Shown here one piece after another: positions 4,749 through 57,982 of a stretch of 59,038 nt of DNA (position 1 is the first letter of the stretch; every line of letters starts with the position of its first letter). This DNA is from a virus. Its lineage: Duplodnaviria; Heunggongvirae; Uroviricota; Caudoviricetes. The notes beneath the pieces were generated by a model. That model was not told the origin of the DNA. It did no database searches and worked only from the letters and a program-made list of their open reading frames with translations. The DNA lies in IMG/VR virus record IMGVR_UViG_3300021256_000061; one strand, given 5' to 3'. Both the position numbers and the translations under genes were made by a program.

Positions 4749-4765
4749 TTGGCATGATTTTTGCA
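4749..4765 (+). promoter_or_regulatory. sigma54-type -24/-12 promoter
   Basis: TTGGCATGATTTTTGCA; GG-N10-GC. Confidence 0.65.
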
Positions 4766-4806
4766 TAAATCAAAAGAAAAAAGTTTATACATTTGCAATG
4801 GACGGG

Positions 4807-4840
4807 ATTCATCCCACCACTAAAGTAGTGGGCTTTCTCC
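4807..4840 (+). repeat. solo IS200/IS605-type end hairpin
   Basis: attcatcccaccactaaagtagtgggctttctcc resembles the element-end hairpin at 17836-17870. Confidence 0.6.
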
Positions 4841-4865
4841 CGTATTTATCGTAAAAAAATAGATT

Positions 4866-5345
4866 ATGATTACAGAAGATTACGTCAGTTTCGAAACCGC
4901 CAAACTCTTGAAGGATAAGGGGTTTAAGGAGTGGTGCTATAAGTGCTATGGCACTGCTGTATATCATAAAGGTGTACCAATCAGTTTTGATGAAGAATGT
5001 GAACTGAAAGACGAAGGGCTTAAAGATGAAATTGAATATGTAGAAGGCGGGTATCTTTATGATATTGGGTGTGGCAATAGAAAGGAAGATGCAAATGTAT
5101 GGGCCGCTCCGACATTGTGGGTTGCAATAAAGTGGCTGATGAAGAATTATGGTATCCATATTACAGCTGTCCCCAACGGCATTGGAAAAAATGTGTTCTA
5201 TATGGGCATTTACAAAAAATATGATGATTATGGATGGATTTACATAAGTGATGGCCTTGATAAAAAATTTAAAGAAGCAGAATTTTATACACCAGAGGAA
5301 GCCTGCGAAGCTGCTATTAAGTATTGCCTTGAAAATTTGATTTAG
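4866..5345 (+). CDS. family A protein (MITEDYVSFETAKLLK...EAAIKYCLENLI)
   Basis: All three conserved blocks. Confidence 0.9.
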   Translation: MITEDYVSFETAKLLKDKGFKEWCYKCYGTAVYHKGVPISFDEECELKDEGLKDEIEYVEGGYLYDIGCGNRKEDANVWAAPTLWVAIKWLMKNYGIHITAVPNGIGKNVFYMGIYKKYDDYGWIYISDGLDKKFKEAEFYTPEEACEAAIKYCLENLI

Positions 5346-5346
5346 T

Positions 5347-5727
5347 ATGATAACAGAGGATTACGTTAGTTTTGAAACGGCAAAACTCCTGAAGGAAAAG
5401 GGGTTTGATGAAGAATCATGGTGTGTATACAATTTAGTATCTGAAAAATTCGCCAGAGAAATAGTAGACCAGAATTTTAGATATAATCACGGCTTACCTA
5501 ATTATGTTGCATCTGCTCCTACTCTCCAAATGGCCATGAAGTGGTTGAGAGAAGTACATAATATGCACATTGAAGTTAAATATTTTTTTGAGCCACACAT
5601 CTATAAGTACACTATTACTTATACCCCAGTTGCACTTGATAATATTAGTTCACATCCGCAATGTTTTAATACCTATGAAGAAGCCTGCGAAGCAGCGATT
5701 AAGTATTGCCTTGAAAATTTAATTTAA
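5347..5727 (+). CDS. family A protein
   Basis: All three conserved blocks. Confidence 0.9.
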   Translation: MITEDYVSFETAKLLKEKGFDEESWCVYNLVSEKFAREIVDQNFRYNHGLPNYVASAPTLQMAMKWLREVHNMHIEVKYFFEPHIYKYTITYTPVALDNISSHPQCFNTYEEACEAAIKYCLENLI

Positions 5728-5729
5728 TT

Positions 5730-6110
5730 ATGAATAAAGAAGAAAAACAAATATTATTGAAAGACCTTTGTGCAAGGTTGCCTTATGGAGTAATGTGTAC
5801 TGATTTACGACATGGCGACAGTAAAATAACTGAAATCGACATAAAAAGTGATTTGGTATATTGCGCTGATTTTGATGAATACGCAGAGATAGAATATTAC
5901 TGCAAACCATATCTTCGTCCAATGTCAAGTATGACTAAGGAAGAGAGGTTTGTATATGAACAACGCCTTCATGATGTCGGTAGAAGTATTAATGTTATAG
6001 ATGCCGATGATGTTGTATCACATATAGATTGGCTCCTTGCACATCATTTTGACTATCGTGGATTGATTGAAAAAGGCCTTGCTCTTGAAGCACCTGAAGG
6101 AATGTATTAA
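5730..6110 (+). CDS. family B protein (EEKQLLLKDLCARLPYG...YLRPMSSMT...LALEAPEGMY)
   Basis: All conserved blocks. Confidence 0.9.
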   Translation: MNKEEKQILLKDLCARLPYGVMCTDLRHGDSKITEIDIKSDLVYCADFDEYAEIEYYCKPYLRPMSSMTKEERFVYEQRLHDVGRSINVIDADDVVSHIDWLLAHHFDYRGLIEKGLALEAPEGMY

Positions 6111-6111
6111 T

Positions 6112-6345
6112 ATGTCTATATTTAAGAAGCTAAAATATTGGCTGTTTCCTTGCAAGCACAAGTGGGTGCAGGGTGCAGAATATTGGCATAACAAGACAGG
6201 CGCGAATTACGATTACCTCCTGCCAAACCCAATGAAGTACCACCCCGAATATCAATCCAATTGTTACGTCTGTGAAAAGTGCGGAGAGTCAATAGTAACG
6301 ATAGAAAAAATTAAAGCTCCTGAAGGAATGTATAAAATTGAATAG
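6112..6345 (+). CDS. hypothetical protein with family B tail
   Basis: CKHKW...CEKCG body; ends APEGMYKIE. Confidence 0.75.
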   Translation: MSIFKKLKYWLFPCKHKWVQGAEYWHNKTGANYDYLLPNPMKYHPEYQSNCYVCEKCGESIVTIEKIKAPEGMYKIE

Positions 6346-6356
6346 ATTATAAAGTT

Positions 6357-6602
6357 ATGGCTATAATTAAAACACTTGGTGACTTTCGACAATTAACCAA
6401 AGATTTGGATGACGATTTCGCCATTGAATTTCGTGTAAGAACAAGGGTTCCAGAGGAAGAACTAAAAAACCGAAGGTATCCTTATCCTTATGATACCGAA
6501 TACTTTGATGGATTTGAGTTCGATGATGTTGGATATAGTGATAAAGTGGCGTGCTTTGGGGTTACGTTGGAAGCTCCTGAAGGAATGTATAAAATTGAAT
6601 AG
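6357..6602 (+). CDS. hypothetical protein with family B tail
   Basis: Unrelated body; ends LEAPEGMYKIE. Confidence 0.75.
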   Translation: MAIIKTLGDFRQLTKDLDDDFAIEFRVRTRVPEEELKNRRYPYPYDTEYFDGFEFDDVGYSDKVACFGVTLEAPEGMYKIE

Positions 6603-6605
6603 AAT

Positions 6606-6818
6606 ATGCAAATTGAATTTATTTTATTTCTTATTATAATAGTTACGTGGATTCCAATGGGAATTCTTATTGATTATGTTGCAGATAAGTGCAATCTTCC
6701 CATGCAAGATGGTTTAAACCCAGCACCATGGGCACTCCTTGGATTAGTTTGGCCAATATCTTTATTCCCATTTCTTACATATTGCTTATGGCATAAATAT
6801 AGAAACAAAGTAGATTGA
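6606..6818 (+). CDS. small membrane protein
   Basis: Two hydrophobic segments. Confidence 0.7.
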   Translation: MQIEFILFLIIIVTWIPMGILIDYVADKCNLPMQDGLNPAPWALLGLVWPISLFPFLTYCLWHKYRNKVD

Positions 6819-6821
6819 CAT

Positions 6822-9653: not shown

Positions 9654-10766
9654 ATGGATAAAATAACGACAATACTCTTGTGTGGCATTATGTCACTTCT
9701 GCTCTCTACTAAATCCTTCGGACAGATGGTGGAGAAAGACACTGTCATTACGGGCAGGGTAGAGTTTGTCGTCAATACCAACAGGATTATTGACAACGAC
9801 TGTTATTCGCAGTTTGCTAACGAGATTCTTCCCATGGTCCATTATAATGAGGACAGGGTAATTAAAGTGATGATTGTTGGCTCCGCTTCACCAGAGGGAA
9901 ACCCTGAGAGAAACAGATACCTTTCAAAGATACGCGCTGAAAAGGTGCTTGATATCCTTAGCAAGTTCATTAGTAAGGAAAAAATAGATGTGGTGAGCGA
10001 CGGCGAACTTTTCCTACAGGTATCAAGATGTAAGAAAGAAGATTTCAAGGTACGAAGGGGTGTTTATGTCGAAGCATGGATTGAAGGGGTTTCAACCCAT
10101 ACCGTTAATACACTCAAACTTGAAAGGGTTGACACGCTGTATATCCACGACACGCTTTATCTTCATGATACGGTTTATATTGAGAAACCTTTCAAGAGGA
10201 TTCCAATACTTGCCGTCAAGACCAATCTCGTATCGGATTTACTTGTAACACCAAATATTCAGGCAGAACTTTATACTCACCTGTGGGGCTTGTCGCTTGA
10301 ATTTGACTATACCTTTCCTTGGTTCCATAAGGATTATGATAAATACTTCTATTATCAGATTCTTAATGGTACCGCAGGAATCAGAAAGTACCTAAACAAC
10401 AAGTACAACGGCCATTATTTCGGCATATACGCAAACACTGCAGTATATGACATATGTCCTTTTGATAAGGATAAAGGATGGCAAGGCGAAGTGTACGGCG
10501 CGGGAATAAGTTATGGATATGTTTTCCAAAACAAGAAGCACCCGAGGTTAAAGTTTGAGCCGTACATAAGAGTTGGATGGTTCAATACGAAATTTGACAC
10601 CTATCATGCTTCGCAGCCCTGGGATGGCAAGTATTACTATAATTGGTACTTAAAGGCAAGTGATTTTGTGCCAAGAAGATTCAACATGAATTATTTCGGT
10701 CCTACAGAAATTGGATTTAATTTTACCTTTGATTTGATATGTTTAAGAAAATATTACTATTTATAA
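9654..10766 (+). CDS. DUF3575-family outer-membrane protein with OmpA-like N-terminal domain
   Basis: Signal peptide; VGSASPEG...NRYLSKIRA; AVKTNL...PNIQAE; aromatic barrel end ending GPTEIGFNFTF. Confidence 0.8.
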   Translation: MDKITTILLCGIMSLLLSTKSFGQMVEKDTVITGRVEFVVNTNRIIDNDCYSQFANEILPMVHYNEDRVIKVMIVGSASPEGNPERNRYLSKIRAEKVLDILSKFISKEKIDVVSDGELFLQVSRCKKEDFKVRRGVYVEAWIEGVSTHTVNTLKLERVDTLYIHDTLYLHDTVYIEKPFKRIPILAVKTNLVSDLLVTPNIQAELYTHLWGLSLEFDYTFPWFHKDYDKYFYYQILNGTAGIRKYLNNKYNGHYFGIYANTAVYDICPFDKDKGWQGEVYGAGISYGYVFQNKKHPRLKFEPYIRVGWFNTKFDTYHASQPWDGKYYYNWYLKASDFVPRRFNMNYFGPTEIGFNFTFDLICLRKYYYL

Positions 10767-13414: not shown

Positions 13415-13442
13415 GTTTTATAAAAAGTTTTTTGTATATTTG
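13412..13442 (+). promoter_or_regulatory. Bacteroidetes housekeeping-sigma promoter
   Basis: TTTG-N19-TATATTTG. Confidence 0.75.
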
Positions 13443-13446
13443 CAAT

Positions 13447-13854
13447 ATGGAAGATTACAAAGAAAAATTAAAACTTAAAGAAGGAGCAATATGGCTCAAA
13501 GATACAATGAAAAATGTACTTCAGGAAGTATATGACCACTACCGCTCCGTTGTATTGTCAAACGATTATCTTTGGAAGGAAAATGAACGCCTCAAGGGTG
13601 AAGCATACAAGGACGAGGAACTTGCGAAGATGAAGGAGCAGTATGAGAAAATGAAAGCCGATTACTACCGCGGATTTGCTATTTCTAAAGAGGAAGAAGA
13701 AAAGATTAAAAAATGGAAGGAAACGCTTCCCGATGCGAATACAGGAGCCATTGGTGGTAGGTTTACATATCAGTTTATCTGTACTTCAATCGGCAATATT
13801 GGCACGGTAAAGGATAGCGTTACAGGAGAAGAGTTCACCTTCAGGGAATTATAA
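13447..13854 (+). CDS. conserved phage hypothetical protein
   Basis: Ends GAIGGRFTYQFICTSIG...VTGEEF; start reassigned. Confidence 0.75.
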   Translation: MEDYKEKLKLKEGAIWLKDTMKNVLQEVYDHYRSVVLSNDYLWKENERLKGEAYKDEELAKMKEQYEKMKADYYRGFAISKEEEEKIKKWKETLPDANTGAIGGRFTYQFICTSIGNIGTVKDSVTGEEFTFREL

Positions 13855-14273: not shown

Positions 14274-15163
14274 AACTTAAAAATGAAGTTATAACACTCC
14301 CATCAGACATTGATGCTGAATGCATAGATATTTGCAACACTCTTAATTCGCTTCCTGAAACAGAGACATTCGAGTCTTGCTGCGGGCACCTCAGGTATAG
14401 GTTTAGCGTGTGGTTCTTTTGCTACAGCATTGATGTCCTTTCACGTCTTGGAAGGGCTGTTGAACGTAATTATTCTGACGGTAAATGGGAAATCGTTGTT
14501 GATTCGACTGATACATATCCAAATGGCGTATTTTGGCTTCGCTCGAAGGAACCATTTAAAACCGAAGAAGAAATGAGAGCATCCGTTAATAACCTGATTG
14601 GTAATATTAACCATTGGGTGCAGGATGCGTTTGATGAATATTTTTCAAAGGCCTCTCTTCGGTCTCTTCAGCAGGAGCAGTCCACACACGATTATTTTGA
14701 TGAGTATTTCAAAGACGAATCAGGCGCCGACAATGATGTTGTTGTCAGTCTTTCCAATAAAGTTTCTGACATAATAATTTCACAAGTGAAAGAAAATTTA
14801 TCTAAGCCAAAAACAAGAGACAAGAAATTTTCTGAACTGAAGGCGGGCGATTCTGTATGGATTTGGTGGCTCAGTGAATTATACGAATACGGCGTGCAGG
14901 ACATTGGCTTCATTACTGATGATGGCGAAAAAGAACTCTTGCCAACGGGAGATAGACATTTATTATTGAAAGGTGGAGGAGCATATTATCTCACAAAAGA
15001 TTGCGCCGACAGTGAAGCCTTTGTTTGGGGCACGGACGGTTGGCACGAATACAAGATAATCGGCACCTCTAAGGAGGCTGTAAAAAAATGTTTAGTGGAT
15101 AACATTAACGCTGACTTGAAAAAGCTCGAAAAACAAACACTTAATTGGTTATCAGAATTTTAA
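14270..15163 (+). CDS. hypothetical two-domain protein
   Basis: N-terminal TFESCCGH motif; coupled start. Confidence 0.7.
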   Translation: MKLKNEVITLPSDIDAECIDICNTLNSLPETETFESCCGHLRYRFSVWFFCYSIDVLSRLGRAVERNYSDGKWEIVVDSTDTYPNGVFWLRSKEPFKTEEEMRASVNNLIGNINHWVQDAFDEYFSKASLRSLQQEQSTHDYFDEYFKDESGADNDVVVSLSNKVSDIIISQVKENLSKPKTRDKKFSELKAGDSVWIWWLSELYEYGVQDIGFITDDGEKELLPTGDRHLLLKGGGAYYLTKDCADSEAFVWGTDGWHEYKIIGTSKEAVKKCLVDNINADLKKLEKQTLNWLSEF

Positions 15164-16546: not shown

Positions 16547-17716
16547 TTAACGTGGGCTTACATACGATTGGGCGGTTGACAGCGCCCTGCCCGTAAGGGG
16601 TGTGAGTCCACCATCAATTGGCAGAGAACTCGATACGGGGTGTTTGGAACGAACTCCAATGTTGATTGCCGCATTCCAATCTGCATCAAGAACAACGCCG
16701 TCAGCGCAGACGTATCGCCTGCCGCAACGACGCCCGTCTTTCTTCCCTGTCCTTGAATCCGTTTGACTGGTGAATGTCGGCGAAACCGTTTCAACTCGCT
16801 TTCCTGCGAGTTGTGCCTTGTGCTCAACAATTTGTCTAAACATATAGAACGGCACCTGCGACATCGCATTGTTGTGCCGTTTTCTTTTATATCCCTCTTT
16901 TGTAGCAGAGGTATTTTTCTTAATTTTTGTAAGGTCCTCAAGGACAATCACTCCCGCATCGGTATTATTGATTAATGTATGAGCTGCACGGTAGCACATG
17001 TCCTTTGAAAGATTGTGTTCCTTCTTTTTTAATTTTTTTCTATGTTTGTAAGCACTCTTGGTTTTTTTCTTCTGTAGAGAGGATTTCAAGTGCCTAATTT
17101 TCCGCCTGTGGTCAAGATATGTTGTATCACGGAATGAGTTCCCTTCAGATGTAACAAAGAATTGACGCATCCCAAGGTCAACACCACATGCATTATCGTT
17201 GGTCATCGGTTTCTCGGGAACCTCAAATGGTATTGACAAGAAAAACCTGCCGTCGCGAAGGAAAATTGTAGGGTCGCATGCCTTAAATGCTGTTAGCATA
17301 TACTCGGCTTTTGAAAAAAGCACGAATGGTATCAATCTGCGCTTGTGTGCCAATGGCCCCGTTAGAGTAATCCCATTAACAGTTAATAACCCATATAGCC
17401 TTTTATCAAGCGTCATTACGAGGGATTTGCGTTTTGGTATGGCATTGGCGTGTTTGTTCGAACGGGCACTTTTTAAAGCAGCCGCAGCGGCTTGCTCGCA
17501 TTTAATAACCATTTGTGAAGATAGAATAGGAAACCGAGCCCTTGTTTTGTCGTAACAAGCCTTATGGATACACTTCATGGTAAGTGGTGACTTCTCTGCG
17601 ATTAGAAGTTCCACGCAGAAATTAAACGCATCGCGGGCCGAGACAAGAAGTTTCTCCCAATGTTGGGAATAGTCCTCATCCATCTGCAGCGGTATGTTAT
17701 AAGTCTCAATTACCAT
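16547..17716 (-). CDS. tnpB: TnpB RNA-guided endonuclease family protein
   Basis: RuvC motifs GVDLG, VLEDL, DADWNAAINI. Confidence 0.92.
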   Translation of the reverse strand: MVIETYNIPLQMDEDYSQHWEKLLVSARDAFNFCVELLIAEKSPLTMKCIHKACYDKTRARFPILSSQMVIKCEQAAAAALKSARSNKHANAIPKRKSLVMTLDKRLYGLLTVNGITLTGPLAHKRRLIPFVLFSKAEYMLTAFKACDPTIFLRDGRFFLSIPFEVPEKPMTNDNACGVDLGMRQFFVTSEGNSFRDTTYLDHRRKIRHLKSSLQKKKTKSAYKHRKKLKKKEHNLSKDMCYRAAHTLINNTDAGVIVLEDLTKIKKNTSATKEGYKRKRHNNAMSQVPFYMFRQIVEHKAQLAGKRVETVSPTFTSQTDSRTGKKDGRRCGRRYVCADGVVLDADWNAAINIGVRSKHPVSSSLPIDGGLTPLTGRALSTAQSYVSPR

Positions 17717-17765
17717 ATTTCACGTTCGTGATTTTATTATAAATAGTATTTTATTTGCAAAAAGT

Positions 17766-17796
17766 TTTGTTTTTTCAAAGAAAAGTAATATTTTTG
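17766..17796 (+). promoter_or_regulatory. Bacteroidetes housekeeping-sigma promoter inside the IS end, pointing outward
   Basis: TTTG-N19-TATTTTTG. Confidence 0.55.
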
Positions 17797-17895
17797 CAAA
17801 AGGTTAAACTTATAATAAATAAAAAGGCTAACCGCAATTCCTCCCAACGGCTAAAGCCGTGGGTTTCCTTGCGGTAGATATAATGAGGAATAACT

Positions 17896-17920
17896 ACGGG
17901 TTCGAGTCCCCTCCGAACCA
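17896..17920 (+). pseudogene. tRNA 3'-half remnant
   Basis: acgggTTCGAGTcccctccgaacca: T-loop plus acceptor 3' strand; no 5' half seen. Confidence 0.5.
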
Positions 17921-17932
17921 CACAAACAAAGT

Positions 17933-17949
17933 TTGGCACGGTTTTTGTA
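17933..17949 (+). promoter_or_regulatory. sigma54-type promoter (-12 variant GT)
   Basis: TTGGCACGGTTTTTGTA, 27 nt before ATG 17976. Confidence 0.6.
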
Positions 17950-19849: not shown

Positions 19850-20791
19850 ATGGATAAGAAAATCACAATTCAAATTAAGTGCAGATTTACAGGTAGTATT
19901 CTTTTTGAATACACTAAAGAGAACAACACAATTAAAGATACATTATTGGAGGGAGTAAAGCAAGGTGCCGACCTCCATGGCGCCGACATCCGTGGTGTTG
20001 ACCTCTCTGATGCTGACCTCTCTGATGCTAAACTCTATGGTGTTGACCTCTCTGGTGCTAATCTCCGTAGTGCTATCCTCTCTGGTGCTAATCTCCGTAG
20101 TGCTATCCTCCCTGGTGCTAATCTCCGTAGTGCTATCCTCCCTGGTGCTAATCTCCGTAGTGCTATCCTCCCTGGTGCTAAACTCTATGGTGTTGACCTC
20201 TCTGGTGCTGACCTCTCTGATGCTAAACTCTATGGTGTTGACCTCTCTGGTGCTAATCTCCGTAGTGCTATCCTCTCTGGTGCTAATCTCTCTGACGCTG
20301 ACCTCCGCTGTGCCGACTTCCGTGGTGCTAAACTCTATGGTGTTGACCTCTCTGGTGCTAAACTCTATGGCGCTAAACTCTCTGACGCTGACCTCCGTGG
20401 TGCTAATCTCCGTAGTGCTATCCTCCCTGGTGCTGACCTCCGTGGTGCTAAAAATATTCCATACTTTCCCCTCGCTTGTCCCACCGACGGGGCTTTTATA
20501 GGATGGAAGAAGGTTGGTGGCAAATGGCTTGTTAAACTCCGTATTCCCGAAGATGCCAAAAGGAGTTCGGCAACTACGAGGAAATGCCGATGCGATAAGG
20601 CGGAAGTCTTGGCAATCACCGACCTTAAAGGAAACAACCCTGTCGAGGAAACCACCAACAATAACTATGTAAAAACCACCTATAAGGTTGGGGAAATGGT
20701 GTACCCCGATAAATTTAATGATGATAGGTGGAACGAGTGTTCCCACGGAATCCATTTCTTTATTAATAAACAAGATGCGATAGATTTTTAG
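19850..20791 (+). CDS. pentapeptide-repeat protein with DUF5758-like C-terminal domain
   Basis: A[D/N]LxG pentapeptides; GAFIGWKK...KCRC...ECSHGIHFF. Confidence 0.9.
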   Translation: MDKKITIQIKCRFTGSILFEYTKENNTIKDTLLEGVKQGADLHGADIRGVDLSDADLSDAKLYGVDLSGANLRSAILSGANLRSAILPGANLRSAILPGANLRSAILPGAKLYGVDLSGADLSDAKLYGVDLSGANLRSAILSGANLSDADLRCADFRGAKLYGVDLSGAKLYGAKLSDADLRGANLRSAILPGADLRGAKNIPYFPLACPTDGAFIGWKKVGGKWLVKLRIPEDAKRSSATTRKCRCDKAEVLAITDLKGNNPVEETTNNNYVKTTYKVGEMVYPDKFNDDRWNECSHGIHFFINKQDAIDF

Positions 20792-44727: not shown

Positions 44728-44748
44728 TATATACTCAAAAGAGTACCT
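44728..44748 (-). promoter_or_regulatory. AGGTACTCTTTTGAGTATATA motif copy 1
   Basis: Exact 21-mer abutting the CCA end. Confidence 0.7.
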
Positions 44749-44890
44749 GGAGCCACTGCTGGGAATCGAACCCAGACCACGATGGGGGCTAGCGAGAACT
44801 ATGGAAATTGTCATCTAATTTTTTGCTAATCGCAAGCCTTAACGATATCACATCGGTTAATCCCAATGTATGCCCATACACCACACTGGC
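44748..44890 (-). ncRNA. atypical tRNA-like RNA (143 nt)
   Basis: GCCAGTG/CAGTGGC-U-CCA acceptor, CTGGG-TTCGATT-CCCAG T arm, small D arm, long insert, no canonical anticodon loop. Confidence 0.7.
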
Positions 44891-45415: not shown

Positions 45416-45436
45416 TATATACTCAAAAGAGTCCCT
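45416..45436 (-). promoter_or_regulatory. 21-nt motif copy 2
   Basis: AGGGACTCTTTTGAGTATATA (1 mismatch). Confidence 0.7.
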
Positions 45437-46523: not shown

Positions 46524-46544
46524 TATATACTCAAAAGAGTACCT
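46524..46544 (-). promoter_or_regulatory. 21-nt motif copy 3
   Basis: Exact AGGTACTCTTTTGAGTATATA. Confidence 0.75.
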
Positions 46545-46644
46545 TTTCTTCAAAAATCGTACCAAGTTTAGGGTAACTTTTCGGGTGAATGCTCTTTCAC
46601 AGTTTTACACTGAGCAAACCTTCAGTCTCGAGATGGTTCCCTGG

Positions 46645-47433: not shown

Positions 47434-47886
47434 TTACTTGTACCAAGCGAGTGGATATATTCCTCCCTGAGAGAGTGGATTGTCGTCCATCAGATAGAGG
47501 AGGGTACCTTTCTTGGCTTGCTCGGGATTGTCTACCACGAGACAGGCCATATAGTCGCAGACGTCTTTGAGGTAGTATATCGCGAACGGTTTCCCATGCA
47601 GGTATACCTGATGCTTGGTGCACTCTTCTTCCAAGCGCTGGATGTATTCCTTACACCGTGGCGCCGCGAGCACATCGATGTTGCTTTCACCACCCCAGCC
47701 ATCATTCCATATGGAACCAATCTTCTTAAAGGCGATGTCATTCTCGGGGCAGTTGTCTTTATCATAGACGAAGATGTCTGCCTGATAAGGGAGAGAGTCA
47801 TCGTGACCCATGTTCTCTCTGACGTTGGCAAGCGCTACCCAGATACTGGGGGTTAACTTGCATACGATATCTACACTCTTTTTCAT
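47434..47886 (-). CDS. hypothetical protein
   Basis: IGSIWNDGWGGE motif. Confidence 0.75.
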   Translation of the reverse strand: MKKSVDIVCKLTPSIWVALANVRENMGHDDSLPYQADIFVYDKDNCPENDIAFKKIGSIWNDGWGGESNIDVLAAPRCKEYIQRLEEECTKHQVYLHGKPFAIYYLKDVCDYMACLVVDNPEQAKKGTLLYLMDDNPLSQGGIYPLAWYK

Positions 47887-48155
47887 TTCAGTTCGGGTTT
47901 GATTGTAAGTTCAACATCATAGTCATAGACCGAGACGGAATAGTGGTTGTTGGAGTATTCTCCATCGAGATACATTTCAAATCCGCCGCTCTTGGTGTTG
48001 GATAGTACCCAGTCCTTTGGAAACTCTCTCTTGGCGATATCCTTTATCTGCCTAATGGCATCGTCAACACTCTTACGGGAGAAGAGCATTAGAGGCTTAT
48101 GAGGAGCAACCTCGTAATCGTAGACCTCGTCAATTGTGATAATGTAAATTTTCAT
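47883..48155 (-). CDS. hypothetical protein
   Basis: First gene after sigma54-type motif. Confidence 0.75.
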   Translation of the reverse strand: MKIYIITIDEVYDYEVAPHKPLMLFSRKSVDDAIRQIKDIAKREFPKDWVLSNTKSGGFEMYLDGEYSNNHYSVSVYDYDVELTIKPELK

Positions 48156-48190
48156 GTTGGCATTTGTTTATTGGTTCATGAAAGATACTC

Positions 48191-48207
48191 TTCAAAGACC
48201 GTGCCAA
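48191..48207 (-). promoter_or_regulatory. sigma54-type promoter (-12 variant GA)
   Basis: TTGGCACGGTCTTTGAA. Confidence 0.65.
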
Positions 48208-48235: not shown

Positions 48236-48256
48236 TATATACTCAAAAGAGTACCT
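48236..48256 (-). promoter_or_regulatory. 21-nt motif copy 4
   Basis: Exact copy about 30 nt upstream of a sigma54-type motif. Confidence 0.75.
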
Positions 48257-49495: not shown

Positions 49496-49524
49496 TGTTG
49501 TGTTTATTGGTTTATTATTATCCT

Positions 49525-49541
49525 ATCAAAGAACGTGCCAA
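49525..49541 (-). promoter_or_regulatory. sigma54-type promoter (-12 variant GA)
   Basis: TTGGCACGTTCTTTGAT. Confidence 0.65.
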
Positions 49542-49582: not shown

Positions 49583-49604
49583 TATATTACTCAAAAGAGT
49601 ACCT
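49583..49604 (-). promoter_or_regulatory. 21-nt motif copy 5
   Basis: AGGTACTCTTTTGAGTAATATA. Confidence 0.7.
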
Positions 49605-49678: not shown

Positions 49679-50578
49679 TTAAGCAGTTACTTGTGCTGGT
49701 TCAGATACTTTGGTGTCGGTGGTTTCCTCTTTGAGGATTTCCCTTAAAGCCTTGATAGCATCTTTGATTTCTTCGGAGTTGTGCTTTGAAAGGTTGTGCT
49801 CGGCTTTGATGTTCTTGTAACCCTCAACAATAAGGTTGAGAGAGTGAGAAAGGGTGTAGTTCTCGATGAACAGCGGAGAAATTTCCTTGTATTTCTGTTC
49901 TTTGAGGCTCTTTATCAAGTCCCAATCGTTACCTGCGACCTTGATGAAGTCCCTTGCCCAAGAGCCTACGACATTCATATTTGTGCCCTCGTAGTCTCCG
50001 CCACCTCTGCCGTTTCCCTCTACGGTGAGCAGGGGGAGAGGGTGGATTGCCATTTCAAGTCCCCTCACACGCCAAAGGTCGAGGTATTCCTTTTTATCGG
50101 TGTTTATGATGTACCTTACGGCATCTTCATCGCTTTCTTTTGTATCTATGATGATTTCGGGTTTTTCCTTACGGAGCACCTTACCGTTTTCATCTTCAAG
50201 AGAGCCTGCAAGGGAATAGAGGCATTCTGCCTTATCTTCGGCGTTGATGAACAGGTCGCTGTCTTTGCTCGTAAAGAACTTCTCGAAAGAAAGGAATGTT
50301 TTTCCCTCGGCTACTTTTTTCTGCCAAATTGACATAGCCTGCTTGCGAGTAACTTTCTTGAAAAGGGTGTTAGGTTCGGGGTCTGCGTAGTCTCCAGCCC
50401 ACACGAGGTTTGCGCCACCTACTTGTTTGAGATAGGTAGCAACTGCACCTACAAAGTCGTTGTTGAGATATGAGTGCTCCATCAGTTTCAGACCGTTGCC
50501 ATAGCGGTGTGAATTGAAGAACCCCTTAATAGTCTTTCGGTTTGTGCCCAAAATCACAGGGCGATAGTATTGTCCCAT
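49679..50578 (-). CDS. conserved phage hypothetical protein
   Basis: MGQYY...GLKLMEHSY...VWAGDYAD...HPLPLLT.EGNGRGGGDY...GSWARD. Confidence 0.8.
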   Translation of the reverse strand: MGQYYRPVILGTNRKTIKGFFNSHRYGNGLKLMEHSYLNNDFVGAVATYLKQVGGANLVWAGDYADPEPNTLFKKVTRKQAMSIWQKKVAEGKTFLSFEKFFTSKDSDLFINAEDKAECLYSLAGSLEDENGKVLRKEKPEIIIDTKESDEDAVRYIINTDKKEYLDLWRVRGLEMAIHPLPLLTVEGNGRGGGDYEGTNMNVVGSWARDFIKVAGNDWDLIKSLKEQKYKEISPLFIENYTLSHSLNLIVEGYKNIKAEHNLSKHNSEEIKDAIKALREILKEETTDTKVSEPAQVTA

Positions 50579-50613
50579 AATCGTTTTAATTTATTGGTTT
50601 ATGCTTTTACTAT

Positions 50614-50630
50614 TGCAAGGTTCGTGCCAA
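50614..50630 (-). promoter_or_regulatory. sigma54-type promoter
   Basis: TTGGCACGAACCTTGCA. Confidence 0.8.
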
Positions 50631-51368: not shown

Positions 51369-51767
51369 TTACTGGGGGATGTTGTTTTTCACATAGTATT
51401 CGGTGACATTCTCCATATCGGTATTCTCGAAATCCGAATCGGTATCAACGTAGTCACCCTCGTTGTATTTGTCGCTTGCGAGTTCTGCCGCTTCTTCTTC
51501 ATCCCTTGCCTCTACGGTGATGTCAGTCCAGCCGTGGGTGTGGAAACGGAAAGTAAACTTCTTCTTGCCCTCGTTTGGCGTTTCAGTTTCGGGGATGTTG
51601 GTGTTTCCGCCATATTCCCAAAGGGATGTGGTCTGTACGGATGTGAGTTTAATCTCGCCCTTTTTAATCATATCAGCGAGCGCACAGCCCAATGCTTCAT
51701 TACCATAACGACTTGCGTAGGAAACAACATCGTCCAGTACTTCGGTAGTGTTTTCTTTGAGTTTCAT
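51369..51767 (-). CDS. hypothetical protein
   Basis: C-terminal ITVEARDEEEA.E.A (DpnD/PcfM-like pattern). Confidence 0.7.
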   Translation of the reverse strand: MKLKENTTEVLDDVVSYASRYGNEALGCALADMIKKGEIKLTSVQTTSLWEYGGNTNIPETETPNEGKKKFTFRFHTHGWTDITVEARDEEEAAELASDKYNEGDYVDTDSDFENTDMENVTEYYVKNNIPQ

Positions 51768-51797
51768 ATTCGTTGTTTATTGGTTCACCTATGTAAA

Positions 51798-51814
51798 AGC
51801 AAAGACCGTGCCAG
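51798..51814 (-). promoter_or_regulatory. sigma54-type promoter
   Basis: CTGGCACGGTCTTTGCT. Confidence 0.8.
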
Positions 51815-51819: not shown

Positions 51820-52512
51820 TCAGAGCAAACATTTTCTGGAAACATTTCTGGGAACGCTCTTGCTATAATCAATCACGGCGTTCATTTTTGACTGACTATA
51901 ATTAACAGCATTATCGTAGCATTCTTTAACTTTATTACTTTGTTCTTCACCAAGAAGTTCGAGATTGATAAAGGTCGTGGCAATAATTCCCCACTCGTGA
52001 GGTTTGTAGATAAACATCCCTATATCACAAAAATTGAACATAGTATGTTTTTCGTCCTTATATGTGTACTCACCAATTTGTGATGCTGCTATGTGATTGC
52101 CCTTATAATTGAACATATCATATAAACTCATGTTGGCTCTTTCTTTTAACCTCTGGAGAGCGTGAGCGGAATAGACTACGATTTGGCTTATAGTGGGCGT
52201 TGCAGTAAAGCCTTTATAACAGGGGTTTATGTATTGCTTTACCCCCTGATTGGTTGTATATTCGTAGAAGTGCATTGACTCAACAGTGACACACTTACCA
52301 GCCTTGACTCTTACCCACGCACAGATAACTTTGTTATTTTTTGGTGTTATATATGTTGTGACGGCGAGAGTTTTATGTCCCTCGGTGGCAGTCTTGGGAT
52401 TCAGGTATTTACGATACTTTATTGAAATACCCTGACGGAGAGAGTCGAGCCAAAGGCAATCACTGAGGAGTTCCTTGCTCAACTCTTCCTTTGTCATTGT
52501 ATAAGTAATCAT
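51820..52512 (-). CDS. hypothetical protein
   Basis: Start reassigned to ATG 52512; YSAHALQRLKER. Confidence 0.75.
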   Translation of the reverse strand: MITYTMTKEELSKELLSDCLWLDSLRQGISIKYRKYLNPKTATEGHKTLAVTTYITPKNNKVICAWVRVKAGKCVTVESMHFYEYTTNQGVKQYINPCYKGFTATPTISQIVVYSAHALQRLKERANMSLYDMFNYKGNHIAASQIGEYTYKDEKHTMFNFCDIGMFIYKPHEWGIIATTFINLELLGEEQSNKVKECYDNAVNYSQSKMNAVIDYSKSVPRNVSRKCLL

Positions 52513-52542
52513 AACTGTGTTTTCTGTGTTCACCTATGTAAA

Positions 52543-52559
52543 AGCAAAGACCGTGCCAG
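52543..52559 (-). promoter_or_regulatory. sigma54-type promoter
   Basis: CTGGCACGGTCTTTGCT. Confidence 0.8.
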
Positions 52560-52569
52560 AACGACACGG

Positions 52570-52752
52570 TCAGTTATTTTCGTTTTTGTTTTCTCGATTT
52601 TTTTCTCTTTCTAAAAAGTAATCTAACTGCCAGATTAGTGCACAGCCCCACGCCAGGGCTGCCGAGTAGTCTTTCTTTATTACGCTACCAATGACACATA
52701 CGAGTGTGGCGAGCATAATTAACACTTCCCACCAGGTTAAAGTTGCATACAT
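52570..52752 (-). CDS. small membrane protein
   Basis: Two TM segments. Confidence 0.65.
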   Translation of the reverse strand: MYATLTWWEVLIMLATLVCVIGSVIKKDYSAALAWGCALIWQLDYFLEREKNRENKNENN

Positions 52753-53112: not shown

Positions 53113-53577
53113 TTATGCAGCGTCTTTGGAAAAGTAGTGGACTGACGAATAGCAATCAGAGCCGTTTTCTTCGGTGACATCTTCGCTGATTTCATCGTAG
53201 CCGATATATCGCATAAGATTGCGAAGATAGCCATGCTCATGTTTCCAATCCCCCCAAGAAATTGACACTGATAATGCATCATCGAATCGGCTGATGTCAT
53301 CGTTGTAGAGTCCGTTGTCGGAAAGGTAGTTGTTTACCATATCTACTTCGGGGAGTTTGGAATTGGGAACTACAAGAACTTCCCACTCCCTTATGTTTTT
53401 GGTATTGCCGTCCGCATCTTCGAGAATGAGGTGGGGGCAGTAATCTCCGTTGAGGCGTTCATCACCCCAGTCGATGTACTCCTTAACTTTCCAGGCCTTT
53501 TCCTTGTTGGGCTTCCAAGAGTAGTTCTTTTCCTCTAACACCCATACTTCTTTGCCGATGATTTTGTTCTTGTCCAT
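53113..53577 (-). CDS. hypothetical protein
   Basis: WGDWKHEHGYL motif. Confidence 0.75.
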   Translation of the reverse strand: MDKNKIIGKEVWVLEEKNYSWKPNKEKAWKVKEYIDWGDERLNGDYCPHLILEDADGNTKNIREWEVLVVPNSKLPEVDMVNNYLSDNGLYNDDISRFDDALSVSISWGDWKHEHGYLRNLMRYIGYDEISEDVTEENGSDCYSSVHYFSKDAA

Positions 53578-53609
53578 AATATTTGTGTTTATCGGTTTAC
53601 TTGATTATA

Positions 53610-53626
53610 AGCAAAGTTCATGCCAA
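53610..53626 (-). promoter_or_regulatory. sigma54-type promoter
   Basis: TTGGCATGAACTTTGCT. Confidence 0.75.
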
Positions 53627-53629: not shown

Positions 53630-54313
53630 TTATTCGTTCCTTAAGTAATCGAGTAAACCTCTCATATCTTTTATAGGCAGTTCGTCGATGTCGTGCCATG
53701 TATTCTCTCCGTTATCTTCCCTTTCTCCGTGAATGTGATACCACATTGTTCCCTCGCCTTCCATTTCGAAGATTTTTTCTATCGCTGGGATTTCAAGGGA
53801 CGATAAACCTTGTGCTTCTTCTTCCGCAGAGGGGAGATTGAAGAAAATCTCCTTTGGATGTTCTTCACTCGTGCCGTCGAGCAGTGGACTTATCTGATGG
53901 CGCAGGTATTCTCTTGCACTATCTTCATCATCGAACAGGCGGTCACAGTCTTTGCAGTGATAACGGCCATCCTCTGCTGTCTCCAGATTCTTGGATTCAC
54001 AGTAGGGGCATTTCTGTTCTTCCTTACAAATTTCTTCTGGATAGCAGTAAGCAGTATCACCGTTCTCGAACTCGATTAACCACAAGGGCATAGCCTCAAT
54101 GTCGCATTCTTCGGCAGTAGCACGACGGATTACCTTAAAGGCCATACCATTATGCTCGCTGTTATCGTCGTAAGGAGAGTTGAATAGACTGGTGAAGCCA
54201 GTTTCTTCATACATAGAAAAGCAGTCGTTCTTAAATTCTTGAAACTGCTCGTCGGTCATTTCGTCGTCGGTAGTAAAATGTCCCCACTTCAGATTAAATT
54301 CTTTTAATGTCAT
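53630..54313 (-). CDS. hypothetical protein with zinc ribbon
   Basis: CPYCES...YHCKDC. Confidence 0.75.
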   Translation of the reverse strand: MTLKEFNLKWGHFTTDDEMTDEQFQEFKNDCFSMYEETGFTSLFNSPYDDNSEHNGMAFKVIRRATAEECDIEAMPLWLIEFENGDTAYCYPEEICKEEQKCPYCESKNLETAEDGRYHCKDCDRLFDDEDSAREYLRHQISPLLDGTSEEHPKEIFFNLPSAEEEAQGLSSLEIPAIEKIFEMEGEGTMWYHIHGEREDNGENTWHDIDELPIKDMRGLLDYLRNE

Positions 54314-54347: not shown

Positions 54348-54364
54348 TGCAAAGTTCATGCCAA
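54348..54364 (-). promoter_or_regulatory. sigma54-type promoter
   Basis: TTGGCATGAACTTTGCA. Confidence 0.75.
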
Positions 54365-54805: not shown

Positions 54806-55339
54806 TTAGTTTGCTTCTATGATGTCTATATCGTCAATGGTTTCGAAATCCTCATCTCCGTCAGTAAAGGCATTGATGCCGAAGCAGGCAGGAGTAGGAA
54901 CACCTTTGCAGATGCAAATGCCTGTGGTTCTGACAATGCCGAGGTCATCGAGAGTACCGAACACATCGAAATGGCTGTTACCCATAGAGAATGTGTAGTG
55001 CCACTTATTGTTCTCAAAATCCTTTTCAATTTCTTCAAGGAAAATAGAGGTTGTGCAGTTTTTCCCCTTGTAAGAGAAACCAATCATAAAGTCATGCTTG
55101 AACTCCAACACATAGGGGGTTTCTGACGGCTCGTGGTTTGTTATCTCATTGGGATAGAGTTCCACACCGAGAAGCGCGTAACCAAGTGCCTGTAAGACAC
55201 AATCCGCTTCATCTTCATCAATACCATTGTCGATGAGCACCTGCTGGGCTTTTGCCACATCTTCCTCGGAAACATTCACGAGGCGAGCAGTATTTTCGTT
55301 ACGCTCTTTAAGTGAGCCAGTTAAAATTATCTTTGTCAT
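54806..55339 (-). CDS. hypothetical protein
   Basis: LIDNGIDEDEADCVLQALGYALLGVELYP motif. Confidence 0.75.
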   Translation of the reverse strand: MTKIILTGSLKERNENTARLVNVSEEDVAKAQQVLIDNGIDEDEADCVLQALGYALLGVELYPNEITNHEPSETPYVLEFKHDFMIGFSYKGKNCTTSIFLEEIEKDFENNKWHYTFSMGNSHFDVFGTLDDLGIVRTTGICICKGVPTPACFGINAFTDGDEDFETIDDIDIIEAN

Positions 55340-55372: not shown

Positions 55373-55389
55373 TGCAAAGACCGTGCCAC
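55373..55389 (-). promoter_or_regulatory. sigma54-type promoter
   Basis: GTGGCACGGTCTTTGCA. Confidence 0.75.
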
Positions 55390-55656: not shown

Positions 55657-55677
55657 TATATACTCAAAAGAGTACCT
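55657..55677 (-). promoter_or_regulatory. 21-nt motif copy 6
   Basis: Exact AGGTACTCTTTTGAGTATATA. Confidence 0.75.
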
Positions 55678-55939
55678 GTTATTCTTTGGCCTGAACCAGG
55701 ACGACATCTCGTGATAAGACAAGAAGCGTACCAAGAATAAATATCCTGAAGGAAAAAGAAAAAGGGTGACGGGGTTTGAATTTTATCCCTGCGTAGGAGT
55801 TCAGTCTTTTCCAATGGCACTCGGCTGAAACTTTTTGCCATTATCCACATCCTCGTAGGTGTCCAGTACTATCCTTATCCGTCCTTTGCGCGGCTCTGGG
55901 TGTTCCACCGCTTTCAACTTTCCCTTTAATTGTTTTATC

Positions 55940-56509
55940 TTATGCCGCTACGAGTTTGCCGTCATTCAATGCTTCTTCCTCGTCAATATACCCTCCACAG
56001 GACTCGATTACTTCTCCATTTTCGTCGGTCACCTCATAACGGTACACCTCGCCGTTCTCATAGTGCTCCAATTCCTCTATCTCGGCGGCGAGCACTTTCT
56101 CTACCGTTTCCCTTACCTTGGGGCTGATACGGCCACCCTTGCAGGAATATTCCTTTCTGACGGCTGCCTTGCTCACAGCGATGACGCCAGCGAGCCCACT
56201 ATCATAGGGACAGGTGAAAGGATTGCTGTCTCCGCAGCGCAGGGCTATTCCGCTATGGTCGTATATCCATATTTTCAGATAAATGAATTTCTTGGCAATG
56301 GTAGCCCAAGGCACTACATCCGTAAGAGGCTCTGCGCCTGCTGCCTCGATTAGGTCTTCTAGGTATTTCCTGTCAGGATTGAATCTTCGGCTGTTCGAAT
56401 AGATTACGCCGAGATTGTCGCAATCCACACGAGGATTGAAGTCTCCATTGTCGTAGAATGTCTTGACAGTTTTGTTACCAACCTGAATTGTTGAAATTGC
56501 ATTTTCCAT
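55940..56509 (-). CDS. conserved phage/ICE hypothetical protein (YDHSG type)
   Basis: NPRVDCDNLG...IYDHSGI...YENGEVY..SCGGY. Confidence 0.8.
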   Translation of the reverse strand: MENAISTIQVGNKTVKTFYDNGDFNPRVDCDNLGVIYSNSRRFNPDRKYLEDLIEAAGAEPLTDVVPWATIAKKFIYLKIWIYDHSGIALRCGDSNPFTCPYDSGLAGVIAVSKAAVRKEYSCKGGRISPKVRETVEKVLAAEIEELEHYENGEVYRYEVTDENGEVIESCGGYIDEEEALNDGKLVAA

Positions 56510-56542: not shown

Positions 56543-56559
56543 AGCAAAAGGCGTGCCAA
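56543..56559 (-). promoter_or_regulatory. sigma54-type promoter
   Basis: TTGGCACGCCTTTTGCT. Confidence 0.8.
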
Positions 56560-56703: not shown

Positions 56704-56710
56704 AAGTCGA

Positions 56711-56962
56711 TTAGATTTCTTTGATAACCCACTCGTACTTGTTGTCATCGGAAACTTCCACTGATGCGGAACGCAGACCGAGGGATTTTCTAATGTTGAG
56801 GTCATCGTAACCCTCCGATGCAAGGCTATCCCTTTCTGACTCGAATTCCTGCATCATAGCCTTTTGTGCTGCTTCTTCGGTCTTGTAACCGTCGCAGGAC
56901 ACGATTTCGTTATTTTCGTTGGTGCAGATTAGTACGAACGCACCTATTTTTTCTTTTGCCAT
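56711..56962 (-). CDS. hypothetical protein
   Basis: YKTEEAAQKAM motif. Confidence 0.7.
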   Translation of the reverse strand: MAKEKIGAFVLICTNENNEIVSCDGYKTEEAAQKAMMQEFESERDSLASEGYDDLNIRKSLGLRSASVEVSDDNKYEWVIKEI

Positions 56963-56979
56963 AACTCGATTATTTTATT

Positions 56980-57183
56980 CTATTCGTATTCTTCGACGAT
57001 GTCATCTACATTTTCACGAACAAGATAACTGCTCGCGTTTGCGGTGATTTTTTGGGCTGCCTCGTCTGCTACAATAGCAAAGAGTTCATCGTCCCTCATA
57101 GGGGAATTATCCACTTTGTCTTTCGGCACATCAACCTCAACCCTTGTAGCAACACTGAAATAAACTATAAATGCTCTTTTCAT
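56980..57183 (-). CDS. small hypothetical protein
   Basis: Start reassigned to MKRAFIVY. Confidence 0.7.
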   Translation of the reverse strand: MKRAFIVYFSVATRVEVDVPKDKVDNSPMRDDELFAIVADEAAQKITANASSYLVRENVDDIVEEYE

Positions 57184-57217
57184 ATTTGTTGTGTTTATTG
57201 GTTTACATTTTATGTAG

Positions 57218-57234
57218 AGCAAAGACCATGCCAA
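57218..57234 (-). promoter_or_regulatory. sigma54-type promoter
   Basis: TTGGCATGGTCTTTGCT. Confidence 0.75.
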
Positions 57235-57237
57235 ATC

Positions 57238-57519
57238 TTACTGCTGATAGTAAAATTCCAACACTTCCAGCACGATAAAGTCACTTCCATTGTCTGGCTT
57301 CATAAGTTCCAGAAGCCCCTCCAGACCAGAAGCGTAAAACAGTATGCTGTCATCATCAGGTGCATCCTGACCGTCCAGAGCCACAACATCTTCCTGCCAG
57401 CCCTTGTCAGTATTGTCACCATCTTCCCACGCCATCTTTACGACGGCACGGTTCGGCTCCTGACCATTGTTATCGTCAGACCATTTCTGGTACAGACTCT
57501 TTACTTCTGACTCTTTCAT
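57238..57519 (-). CDS. acidic hypothetical protein
   Basis: Start reassigned to MKESEVK; DDDSILFY...NGSDF. Confidence 0.7.
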   Translation of the reverse strand: MKESEVKSLYQKWSDDNNGQEPNRAVVKMAWEDGDNTDKGWQEDVVALDGQDAPDDDSILFYASGLEGLLELMKPDNGSDFIVLEVLEFYYQQ

Positions 57520-57526
57520 AACTCGA

Positions 57527-57697
57527 TTAGTTTTCTCTGGCGATTTTTTGTATGTAGATTGTGATGTTTGCAGCACTGCTACCGTTGTTATCCTCGTAGT
57601 CATTGAGCATCACTTGCACTTCTCTTTTTGCGTCCGCCTTTGAATGGATGTTGTCACCATCGACGGTAATGATTGATGTAATCTGATACTTTGCCAT
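57527..57697 (-). CDS. small hypothetical protein (56 aa)
   Basis: MAKYQITSII..., 27 nt after sigma54-type motif. Confidence 0.65.
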   Translation of the reverse strand: MAKYQITSIITVDGDNIHSKADAKREVQVMLNDYEDNNGSSAANITIYIQKIAREN

Positions 57698-57723
57698 ATT
57701 GATTGTGTTTATTGGTTTACTTA

Positions 57724-57740
57724 ATCAAAGACCATGCCAG
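57724..57740 (-). promoter_or_regulatory. sigma54-type promoter (-12 variant GA)
   Basis: CTGGCATGGTCTTTGAT. Confidence 0.6.
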
Positions 57741-57741
57741 A

Positions 57742-57939
57742 TTAGTTCTCTGCAAAGAATTCTTCGTAGATTTTTGCTTTCTGGTCGTTGGTGAGAGATT
57801 CCCACCATTCGTCGGTTGCTTCCAGATAGATTTCTGTTTCGCCGTCATAGTTCTCCAGAAGATAGCCAGAGGCTGCCTGTCTGTCCCAGAGTCCACAGTG
57901 TCTCCACCAGTCCTCTACTATGTGATTGTATTTTGCCAT
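57742..57939 (-). CDS. small hypothetical protein
   Basis: Start reassigned to MAKYNHIV. Confidence 0.7.
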   Translation of the reverse strand: MAKYNHIVEDWWRHCGLWDRQAASGYLLENYDGETEIYLEATDEWWESLTNDQKAKIYEEFFAEN

Positions 57940-57965
57940 CGTTAATACTGTTTTATTTAACATAA

Positions 57966-57982
57966 TGCAAAGACTATGCCAG
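57966..57982 (-). promoter_or_regulatory. sigma54-type promoter
   Basis: CTGGCATAGTCTTTGCA. Confidence 0.7.

Follow-up and report, generated by a model that had tools for sequence, protein, structure and literature searches.

Seventeen sigma-54-type (-24/-12) promoter motifs ahead of small genes in a probable Bacteroidales jumbo phage

We examined a 59,038-nt stretch of phage DNA (Caudoviricetes; IMG/VR record IMGVR_UViG_3300021256_000061), called the window below, in which 17 intergenic copies of the motif TGGCAY-N5-TTG precede genes on the coding strand. The presence of this motif set is confirmed, and its reading as the -24/-12 element of promoters of the sigma-54 (RpoN) type is well supported by sequence comparison. 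The source is probably a jumbo phage of gut or rumen with a Bacteroidales host, and with slightly better than even confidence we favour the explanation that the sites are sigma-54-type promoters used by the RpoN-RNA polymerase (RNAP) of that host, with activation from solution. The sigma-54 holoenzyme is the only form of bacterial polymerase that is unable to open DNA alone; it usually serves a small number of promoters, which are linked to enhancers. For phage sigma-54 promoters that have neither an enhancer nor an activator gene, the mechanistic question is where the ATPase comes from, or how it is dispensed with. If the explanation is true, it would link the expression of phage genes in dominant gut and rumen bacteria to signalling by the host, define a promoter class for annotating uncultured Bacteroidales phages, and provide natural -12 variants for studies of bypass.

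The motif and its placement

A scan against shuffled DNA, proposed in an earlier note that had listed 17 sites from the letters of this sequence, returned 18 exact matches to TGGCAY-N5-TTG in the 59-kb window against 1.03 expected (maximum 5 in 100 dinucleotide-preserving shuffles). All 17 sites are among the 18 matches; only their positions had to be moved, up by 1 nt for plus-strand sites and by 2 nt for those on the minus strand. The spacer between TGGCAY and TTG is N5 in all 18 copies and N4 or N6 in none, and the GG and G(C) elements lie exactly one helical turn apart (GG-N10-GC), the same as in six related loci (see below). The base after TTG (-12) is C in 13, A in 3 and T in 1 of the 17 sites, as the note had tallied it. 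Positions that were not selected by the search pattern agree with the published sigma-54 consensus, YTGGCACG-N4-TTGCW: in the window, 16 of 17 sites have G at +6 and all 17 intergenic sites have W at -11, and among 82 sites of the clade +6 is G or A in 80, -11 is W in 77 and -1 is Y in 64.

A position weight matrix (PWM) built from the 17 window sites and used with a threshold of 9 bits gave bimodal scores, 20-30 bits for the 17 sites and ∼15 for a TGGTACG variant at 46564(-). Beyond these, a single other position of the window scored at least 9 bits, and its 9.7 bits are at the level of shuffled sequence. The one remaining exact match (28461) carries T at +6 and G at -12; it falls below the PWM threshold and had rightly been omitted. 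The note had missed two TGGTACG-N4-TTG variants, at 46551-46564(-) and ∼55720-55733(-); TGGTAY as a host-specific -24 form was considered and rejected, the counts being compatible with chance. In the 17 sites the core and an A-rich leader are conserved and the information content immediately 5' of the core is that of the background. Because conservation drops to background right upstream of the core, the copies are not a duplicated cassette.

Bacterial sigma-54 sites (Salmonella pspG, glnK and rpoH P6-type, PMC3844500; the SM4 class of Flavobacterium psychrophilum, PMC9723704) share the sequence TGGCAY(G)-N4-TTGCW and the spacing, are oriented likewise and lie similarly close to the gene, and the pspG site TGGCATGATTTTTGTAAG, which is bound in Salmonella (PMC3844500), equals the core of the site at 4750 over the first 14 nt. 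The phage sites differ in their number (dozens per phage genome versus a handful to tens per Mb-sized bacterial genome), in having no upstream activator sites, in the frequency of C at -12 (46-76% versus 96%) and in possessing a semi-conserved A/T-rich stretch from -10 to +5 and a shared leader. The likeness to the sigma-54 consensus might be a chance one, shown by a signal that acts in RNA or by an operator for an unrelated DNA-binding regulator; conservation of 5' regions in a strand-specific manner is also compatible with an RNA element, and a second conserved motif, a dyad, is present in the same gene block. However, the core lacks hairpin potential, consists of two short blocks around a variable spacer of fixed length, and agrees with the sigma-54 consensus position by position, and we regard this explanation as very improbable.

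As had been claimed, each of the 17 sites has the same strand as the gene that follows it. The five plus-strand sites belong to a block of plus-strand genes (1-43.4 kb) and the twelve minus-strand sites to a minus-strand block (43.5 kb to the window end) in which the sigma-54 type is the dominant promoter class. Sixteen sites lie 28-37 nt, counted from the G of TTG, before an ATG (the note's 27-36 nt, with a count that starts one base later), and at the remaining one, site 4750, this distance is 102 nt. The sites stand singly, unclustered, and several are preceded by terminator-like hairpins. The genes behind them are small and mostly without recognisable function, which fits an early or accessory class, a timing that we would read from the sequence. 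Among the large open reading frames (ORFs) and the first genes behind the sites, those identifiable with Pfam encode NUDIX, GNAT, DUF3575 outer-membrane, pentapeptide-repeat, GIY-YIG, DUF1599, DpnD/PcfM and TnpB-type transposase proteins. In T4-like phages there are about 40 strong sigma-70 early promoters, some of them in promoter-early stem-loop cassettes. The arrangement is alike in that many closely spaced promoters each head one to three small genes, some after a terminator hairpin, but T4-like phages use the primary sigma factor whereas the motif described here is of the type of an enhancer-dependent alternative sigma factor. The sites, the two variants and the leader motif are as follows (all cores are of the sigma-54 type).

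4750-4763, plus: core TGGCATGATTTTTG(CA); 102-nt structured leader, ATG at 4866
17934-17947, plus: core with T at -12, 28 nt before ATG 17976; just after a tRNA-like 3' fragment and an insertion sequence (IS)
34084-34097, plus: core, 33 nt before ATG 34131
36738-36751, plus: core, 37 nt before ATG 36789
37695-37708, plus: core, 28 nt before ATG 37737
48193-48206, minus: core with A at -12 and AACCAATAAA leader; gene 47883-48155
49527-49540, minus: core with A at -12; heads a small ORF, then the P0001 gene 48301-49212; orthologous promoter kept in relatives
50616-50629, minus: core; gene 49679-50578
51800-51813, minus: core; gene 51369-51767 (DpnD/PcfM-like)
52545-52558, minus: core with the top PWM score; gene 51820-52533
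53612-53625, minus: core; gene 53113-53577
54350-54363, minus: core after a hairpin and T-run; gene 53630-54313 (weak Zn-ribbon match)
55375-55388, minus: core; gene 54806-55339
56545-56558, minus: core; gene 55940-56509
57220-57233, minus: core with AACCAATAAA leader; small gene with start near 57184
57726-57739, minus: core with A at -12; gene 57527-57697
57968-57981, minus: core after a hairpin and T-run; small gene
46551-46564, minus: variant TGGTACGATTTTTG, PWM 15.2; then dyad GGTACTCTTTTGAGTA, ATG 46510
55720-55733 (approximate), minus: variant TGGTACGCTTCTTG; then dyad GGTACTCTTTTGAGTA, ATG 55643
48167-48176, 49503-49512, 50590-50599, 51776-51785, 53588-53597, 57194-57203 and 57708-57717, minus: leader motif AACCRATAAA

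The core at 52545-52558(-) forms part of a 10-bp hairpin (52549-52571, GACCGTG..CACGGTC) followed by a T-rich stretch, an overlap that is probably fortuitous. The leader motif AACCRATAAA is found behind 7 of the 12 minus-strand sites. A sigma-54 promoter has its transcription start site (TSS) ∼11-13 nt past the -12 element, and the leader motif begins ∼26-30 nt past the T of TGGCA, near the predicted +1. A Shine-Dalgarno-like core is present in only 6 of the 79 genes of the window, with A predominating at -13/-14 and -3. The A-richness of the leaders is in part due to this translation signal, which is found throughout the window; an A-rich, Shine-Dalgarno-poor start context is what Baez and colleagues are said to have described in 2019 as the pattern of Bacteroidota. 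The leader of site 4750 (4764-4866) contains a host-type TAnnTTTG box, TACATTTG, and has no match in Rfam. The note had placed an IS-end hairpin here: the hairpin is real (-24 kcal/mol, within the 102-nt leader), but it does not resemble the ends of the window's IS, and its origin from an IS end was not borne out.

Other promoter classes are scarce around the sites. The TAnnTTTG box (the -7 box of the host sigmaA, paired with TTTG at -33 in the primary-sigma promoter of Bacteroidota) occurs within -80 to +60 of only 2 of the 17 sites, one box merely overlapping the core, and the sigma-70-type pattern TTGACA-N16-18-TATAAT is not enriched over 43.4-59 kb (39 matches versus 32.8 +/- 5.6 in shuffles). 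Because -7 boxes are rare and sigma-70 matches unenriched, the sigma-54-type motif is the sole promoter-like element of these gaps. Elsewhere in the window TAnnTTTG boxes precede a few plus-strand genes (at ∼9.6, 17.8 and 25.1 kb), and a late-type motif, ACTATTTAT, has four copies.

Conservation in relatives and in other phages

The 303-aa protein P0001 (48301-49212) has many metagenomic homologues, and we compared six loci that encode homologues 38-62% identical to it (L001, L002, L287, L288, L289 and L290; GC 37-51%), two of them on ENA contigs of 363 kb and 388 kb (ERZ920194 scaffold_3 and ERZ28653751 scaffold_29). Each locus has 7-15 strict sites; of the 64 in total, 62 have the orientation of the genes and 2 the opposite one. 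The GG-N10-GC spacing, the loss of which in relatives the note would have held against its reading, is kept in all six (N5 only). Four of the loci (L002, L287, L289 and L290) have a site that precedes the ATG of the P0001-family gene by exactly 50 nt; in the other two, L001 and L288, the site stands before a small ORF that is inserted upstream of that gene, as in the window. The density of sites is 3.05 per 10 kb in the window, compared to 0.2 in 30 IMG/VR loci with distant P0001 homologues and 0.14 in ∼575 kb of cellular loci. The search of IMG/VR with the P0001 family found only those distant homologues, in loci without the motif, and phages in GenBank gave distant protein matches and no DNA match to the window.

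A 14-mer scan of IMG/VR yielded mostly single matches due to chance, but also the phages G001 and G004 and the loci L080, L127 and L147. G001 is an 82%-complete, 302-kb jumbo phage that has five proteins in common with the window; it carries 56 sites, massed near both ends, versus 2 for the reversed pattern. G004 (IMGVR_UViG_3300006916_000082) is a complete phage of 46,469 bp with terminal repeats and has 16 sites, 15 of them on one strand, across 14.6-37.4 kb. In L127, seven sigma-54-type sites are packed into 1.7 kb, and L147 and L080 contain tight divergent clusters; these three come from unrelated phages.

In the literature that we searched, use of sigma-54 by phages is limited to a promoter of Pseudomonas phage YuA and to a predicted protein of a Pectobacterium phage (a weak, HHpred-level sigma-54-like match, PMC7693777), and reviews of jumbo phages and papers on the rumen virome are silent on it. 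The YuA promoter is sigma-54-like (P015, confirmed by ONT-cappable-seq; PMC10914365, which cites Ceyssens et al. 2008). According to that citing account it is a sigma-54-type promoter in a lytic phage and is used by the host machinery, as is proposed here, but it is one such promoter, in a 58-kb siphovirus of a proteobacterium, whereas here the type dominates among the promoters of a whole block of genes, in a jumbo phage as well as in its relatives.

Host RpoN, a candidate activator and the -12 base

The host order is probably Bacteroidales. The closest cellular homologues of the IS transposase are in Bacteroidales/Paludibacteraceae metagenome-assembled genomes (deer and horse gut), and the DUF3575 outer-membrane protein of the window and the scarcity of Shine-Dalgarno-like cores (6/79 genes) are further clues. 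The RpoN DNA-binding domain was found in 120 of 121 sampled Bacteroidales genomes. In Flavobacterium psychrophilum, which also belongs to Bacteroidota, a typical -24/-12 motif has been TSS-mapped and mutationally tested (PMC9723704), and because this class was mapped and mutated, RpoN of Bacteroidota can be taken to use -24/-12 promoters. Sigma-54 promoters have also been described before chaperone genes in Bacteroidota (PMC12316311); a heat-shock link for Bacteroidales was dropped, as a strict site lies upstream of groES in only one of 30 genomes. No sigma-54-like site was found within 1.5 kb of six host genes for bacterial enhancer-binding proteins (bEBPs) or of rpoN. Taken by itself, the proposition that the phage sites are promoters read by RpoN appears fairly probable. 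What stands of the note's sigma-54 regulon is thus the promoter class, which is backed by spacing, unselected positions, placement, conservation and the presence of RpoN in the host order, whereas RpoN binding and firing, their timing and the identity of the activator are what we infer from sequence.

Sigma-54 promoters are activated by a bEBP, an AAA+ protein that is usually bound at upstream enhancers. Our searches on the phage side covered 59 kb of the phage, ∼109 kb of relatives, G001 and G004. With Pfam, all large ORFs and first genes behind sites in the window contained no RpoN and no bEBP, and phmmer searches that used one host RpoN and four bEBPs from hosts as queries gave nothing at E<=1 in any ORF (40 aa or longer) of the window, the loci of the six relatives, G001 and three further phage loci. 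Sigma54_DBD and Sigma54_CBD were absent from both G001 (82% complete) and G004 (complete), no bEBP was found in the complete 46-kb G004, and no long ORF of any phage sequence searched had a GAFTGA-like loop. Borderline PF00158 matches in G001 were rejected as bEBPs, since they are ClpB/ClpA-type chaperones instead; G001 has such a chaperone spread over two nearby ORFs, C1:66449-67585 and C1:68753-70684 (Clp_N + AAA + lid; AAA_2 + ClpB_D2-small). The regions from -200 to -3 of the 17 sites share no k-mer beyond background, and we conclude from this that they have no common enhancer. Neither upstream activator sites nor a bEBP were thus found in the window, and no bEBP in the relatives' loci, G001 or G004.

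Bacteroidales genomes encode 1-23 bEBPs each. In three of five genomes checked, the top-scoring bEBP is a protein of 387-388 aa with Response_reg at 4-112, Sigma54_activat at 139-306 and AAA_lid to ∼380, and without a helix-turn-helix (HTH) domain. Orthologues, 61-69% identical, were found in 83 of 101 genomes, with open frames 385-424 aa long, of which two are cut by a contig end, and are clearly apart from NtrC-type paralogues of 444-491 aa (39-48% identity). Examples of this orphan gene are L282:1087-2253 (G007), L283:1090-2253 (G074) and L284:1252-2415 (G033). The literature that we searched contains no description of a regulon of the 387-388-aa protein. Activators that lack a DNA-binding domain and work without enhancers are known: CtcC of Chlamydia (PMC7482065), DctD250 (PMC3844500) and Helicobacter FlgR (Brahmachary 2004, as cited in PMC3844500). 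The Bacteroidales protein has the same architecture of receiver and AAA+ domain without HTH as FlgR and CtcC and could serve enhancer-free promoters, but it differs from them in its L1 loop (GAFTSA), in being an orphan without a neighbouring kinase and in that its link to the phage is drawn by us.

In the mechanism that we propose, the 17 sites and the two TGGTAC variants would be -24/-12 promoters read by the Bacteroidales RpoN-RNAP, heading short transcription units of small genes of an early or accessory type. Because the sites have no enhancer, the activator would act from solution, and its most concrete candidate would be the host orphan response-regulator bEBP of 387-388 aa that lacks a DNA-binding domain. 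Granted that RpoN reads the sites, this protein is a possible rather than a probable activator. The frequent loss of C at -12, together with the A/T-rich stretch from -10 to -1, would lower the barrier to DNA opening. Among the routes of activation that the note had offered, a hijacked host activator has thereby gained a candidate and bypass an indirect argument in the weak -12 C, whereas a phage-encoded activator found no counterpart in the sequences searched.

Several points weigh against this explanation. The C at -12, present in 96% of bacterial sigma-54 promoters (PMC4551910), is found in only 13 of 17 sites in the window, 38 of 82 in the clade (C 38, T 24, A 19, G 1; C 46%) and 14 of 56 in G001 (25%). 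Because this base is poorly kept, the recognised element may depart from the canonical sigma-54 element. The host is itself deduced from sequence clues. Strict consensus sites number 0-1 in four of five sampled Bacteroidales genomes and 11, mostly intragenic, in the fifth, and these genomes thus do not confirm the consensus of the host RpoN. The L1 loop of the candidate bEBP reads GAFTSA or GSFTSA instead of the canonical GAFTGA, no kinase gene adjoins the gene of the 387-aa protein, and its tie to phage infection is one that we infer. Dependence on sigma-54 would also be odd for genes that are due to fire at once on an incoming genome.

Because genomes of the host order are nearly free of strict sites, the phage would own the great majority of strong sites in an infected cell. 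Such sites could instead act as sinks or roadblocks that trap host RpoN-RNAP in closed complexes, titrating it from host stress genes or insulating transcription units, with the genes expressed otherwise or by read-through. The sigma-54 holoenzyme does form stable silent complexes and can repress (PMC4551910), the phage sites would far outnumber strict host sites, and the clusters in L127, L147 and L080 are of a kind that would suit titration. Yet a sink requires neither a fixed orientation nor a fixed distance, whereas the window sites are single, lie 28-37 nt before starts, always on the gene strand and in several cases after terminator-like hairpins, with no other promoter element nearby. 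We consider a sink quite improbable.

The stretch from -11 to ∼+5 is A/T-rich in the 82 clade sites, and, counted from the T of TGGCA, G is favoured near +25 and A at +29. Together with the weak -12 C, this fits easily opening promoters and also leaves room for a recognition factor other than canonical RpoN. Loss of the -12 C has been associated with activator-bypass transcription, the consensus C restraining basal transcription (PMC4551910), and host RpoN holoenzyme could open the phage promoters without an AAA+ protein through a weakened fork-junction contact at -12 and an A/T-rich melted region, perhaps helped by an injected or early phage protein that displaces region I of sigma-54. The low frequency of C in the clade and in G001 and the lack of upstream activator sites and of a phage bEBP in the searched sequences speak for this. 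However, even in E. coli wild-type sigma-54 gives bypass in vivo only rarely and weakly (PMC4551910), the activator-dependent promoters pspA and pspG likewise have T at -12 (PMC3844500), 13 of the 17 window sites do retain C, and no candidate phage factor was found; opening without any activator is in our judgement improbable.

A factor other than RpoN could be a sigma-like protein, an RNAP-binding adaptor or an unrecognised polymerase of the phage that reads TGGCAYR-N4-TTG-H-W, a pattern converged on or descended from that of sigma-54, with no role for host RpoN. In support of it, the -12 C stands at 46% in the clade, the triplet conserved in enteric bacteria is TGC while T-15, T-14 and G-13 were fixed here by the search pattern and few other variants surfaced, the semi-conserved stretch after the core (A/T-rich, with G near +25 and A at +29) is foreign to bacterial sigma-54 promoters, and strict sites are nearly missing from the sampled host-order genomes. 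On the other hand, agreement at ∼11 consensus positions with an exact one-turn spacing is unlikely to arise by convergence, and blocks 11 bp apart misfit both the sigma-70-family geometry of -35/-10 and the -33/-7 geometry of Bacteroidota. The same type of regulon occurs in the unrelated G001 and G004, which have almost no genes in common with the phage of the window and for which a common host factor is simpler, and neither the complete G004 nor the 82%-complete G001 yielded an RpoN-like protein. We therefore hold a phage-specific factor to be unlikely, and prefer host RpoN activated from solution. More broadly, and tentatively, a clade of Bacteroidales jumbo phages, and independently G004 and others, may run an early or accessory programme through host sigma-54 RNAP with neither enhancers nor an activator of their own, relying on a host ATPase that lacks a DNA-binding domain or on bypass through a weak -12 element. 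If that is so, no earlier transcription programme of a phage is known to be founded on sigma-54, and nature would here provide an example of sigma-54 initiation that is free of enhancers or bypasses the activator.

Other elements of the window

The dyad GGTACTCTTTTGAGTA (TACTC-TTTT-GAGTA, usually followed by TATA) occurs in six copies in the window versus 0.04 expected, all on the minus strand (44732-44747, 45420-45435, 46528-46543, 48240-48255, 49588-49603 and 55661-55676), and in five copies in L287 and three in L290. Its placement varies: copies follow terminator hairpins and tRNA-like 3' ends, lie 35-50 nt upstream of two sigma-54 sites, or, at 46.5 and 55.7 kb, stand between a TGGTAC-type site and the ATG. 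The dyad may serve as an operator, form a hairpin in RNA or represent a further class of promoter.

Two tRNA-like 3' halves, consisting of a T-arm (GGTTCGAnTCC) and the 3' strand of the acceptor, one of them ending in CCA, were noticed at ∼44750-44790(-), inside a 500-nt gap free of ORFs, and at ∼17895-17925(+). Relatives have them as well (L287 ∼13430-13470, L290 ∼14860-14900), and there too the dyad follows. ARAGORN and Rfam reported nothing above threshold in the window, and no tRNA was called at these halves.

An IS200/IS605-type element with a TnpB-like transposase gene at 16547-17716(-) (PHROG 506, E 2.5e-43) and flanks to 17975 is inserted between plus-strand genes, with a sub-threshold match to IS605-orfB RNA at 17754-17878. 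A copy of this transposase, 60% identical, lies at the very end of the unrelated jumbo phage G001. The gene at 9654-10766 encodes the DUF3575 protein (Bacteroidales outer-membrane beta-barrel), with a weak OmpA-like part, and is preceded by a host-type box, TATGTTTG, and by the ACTATTTAT motif. The gene at 19850-20791 encodes the pentapeptide-repeat protein, which has DUF5758 at its C-terminus (E 3.5e-56 and 3.2e-36 in Pfam).

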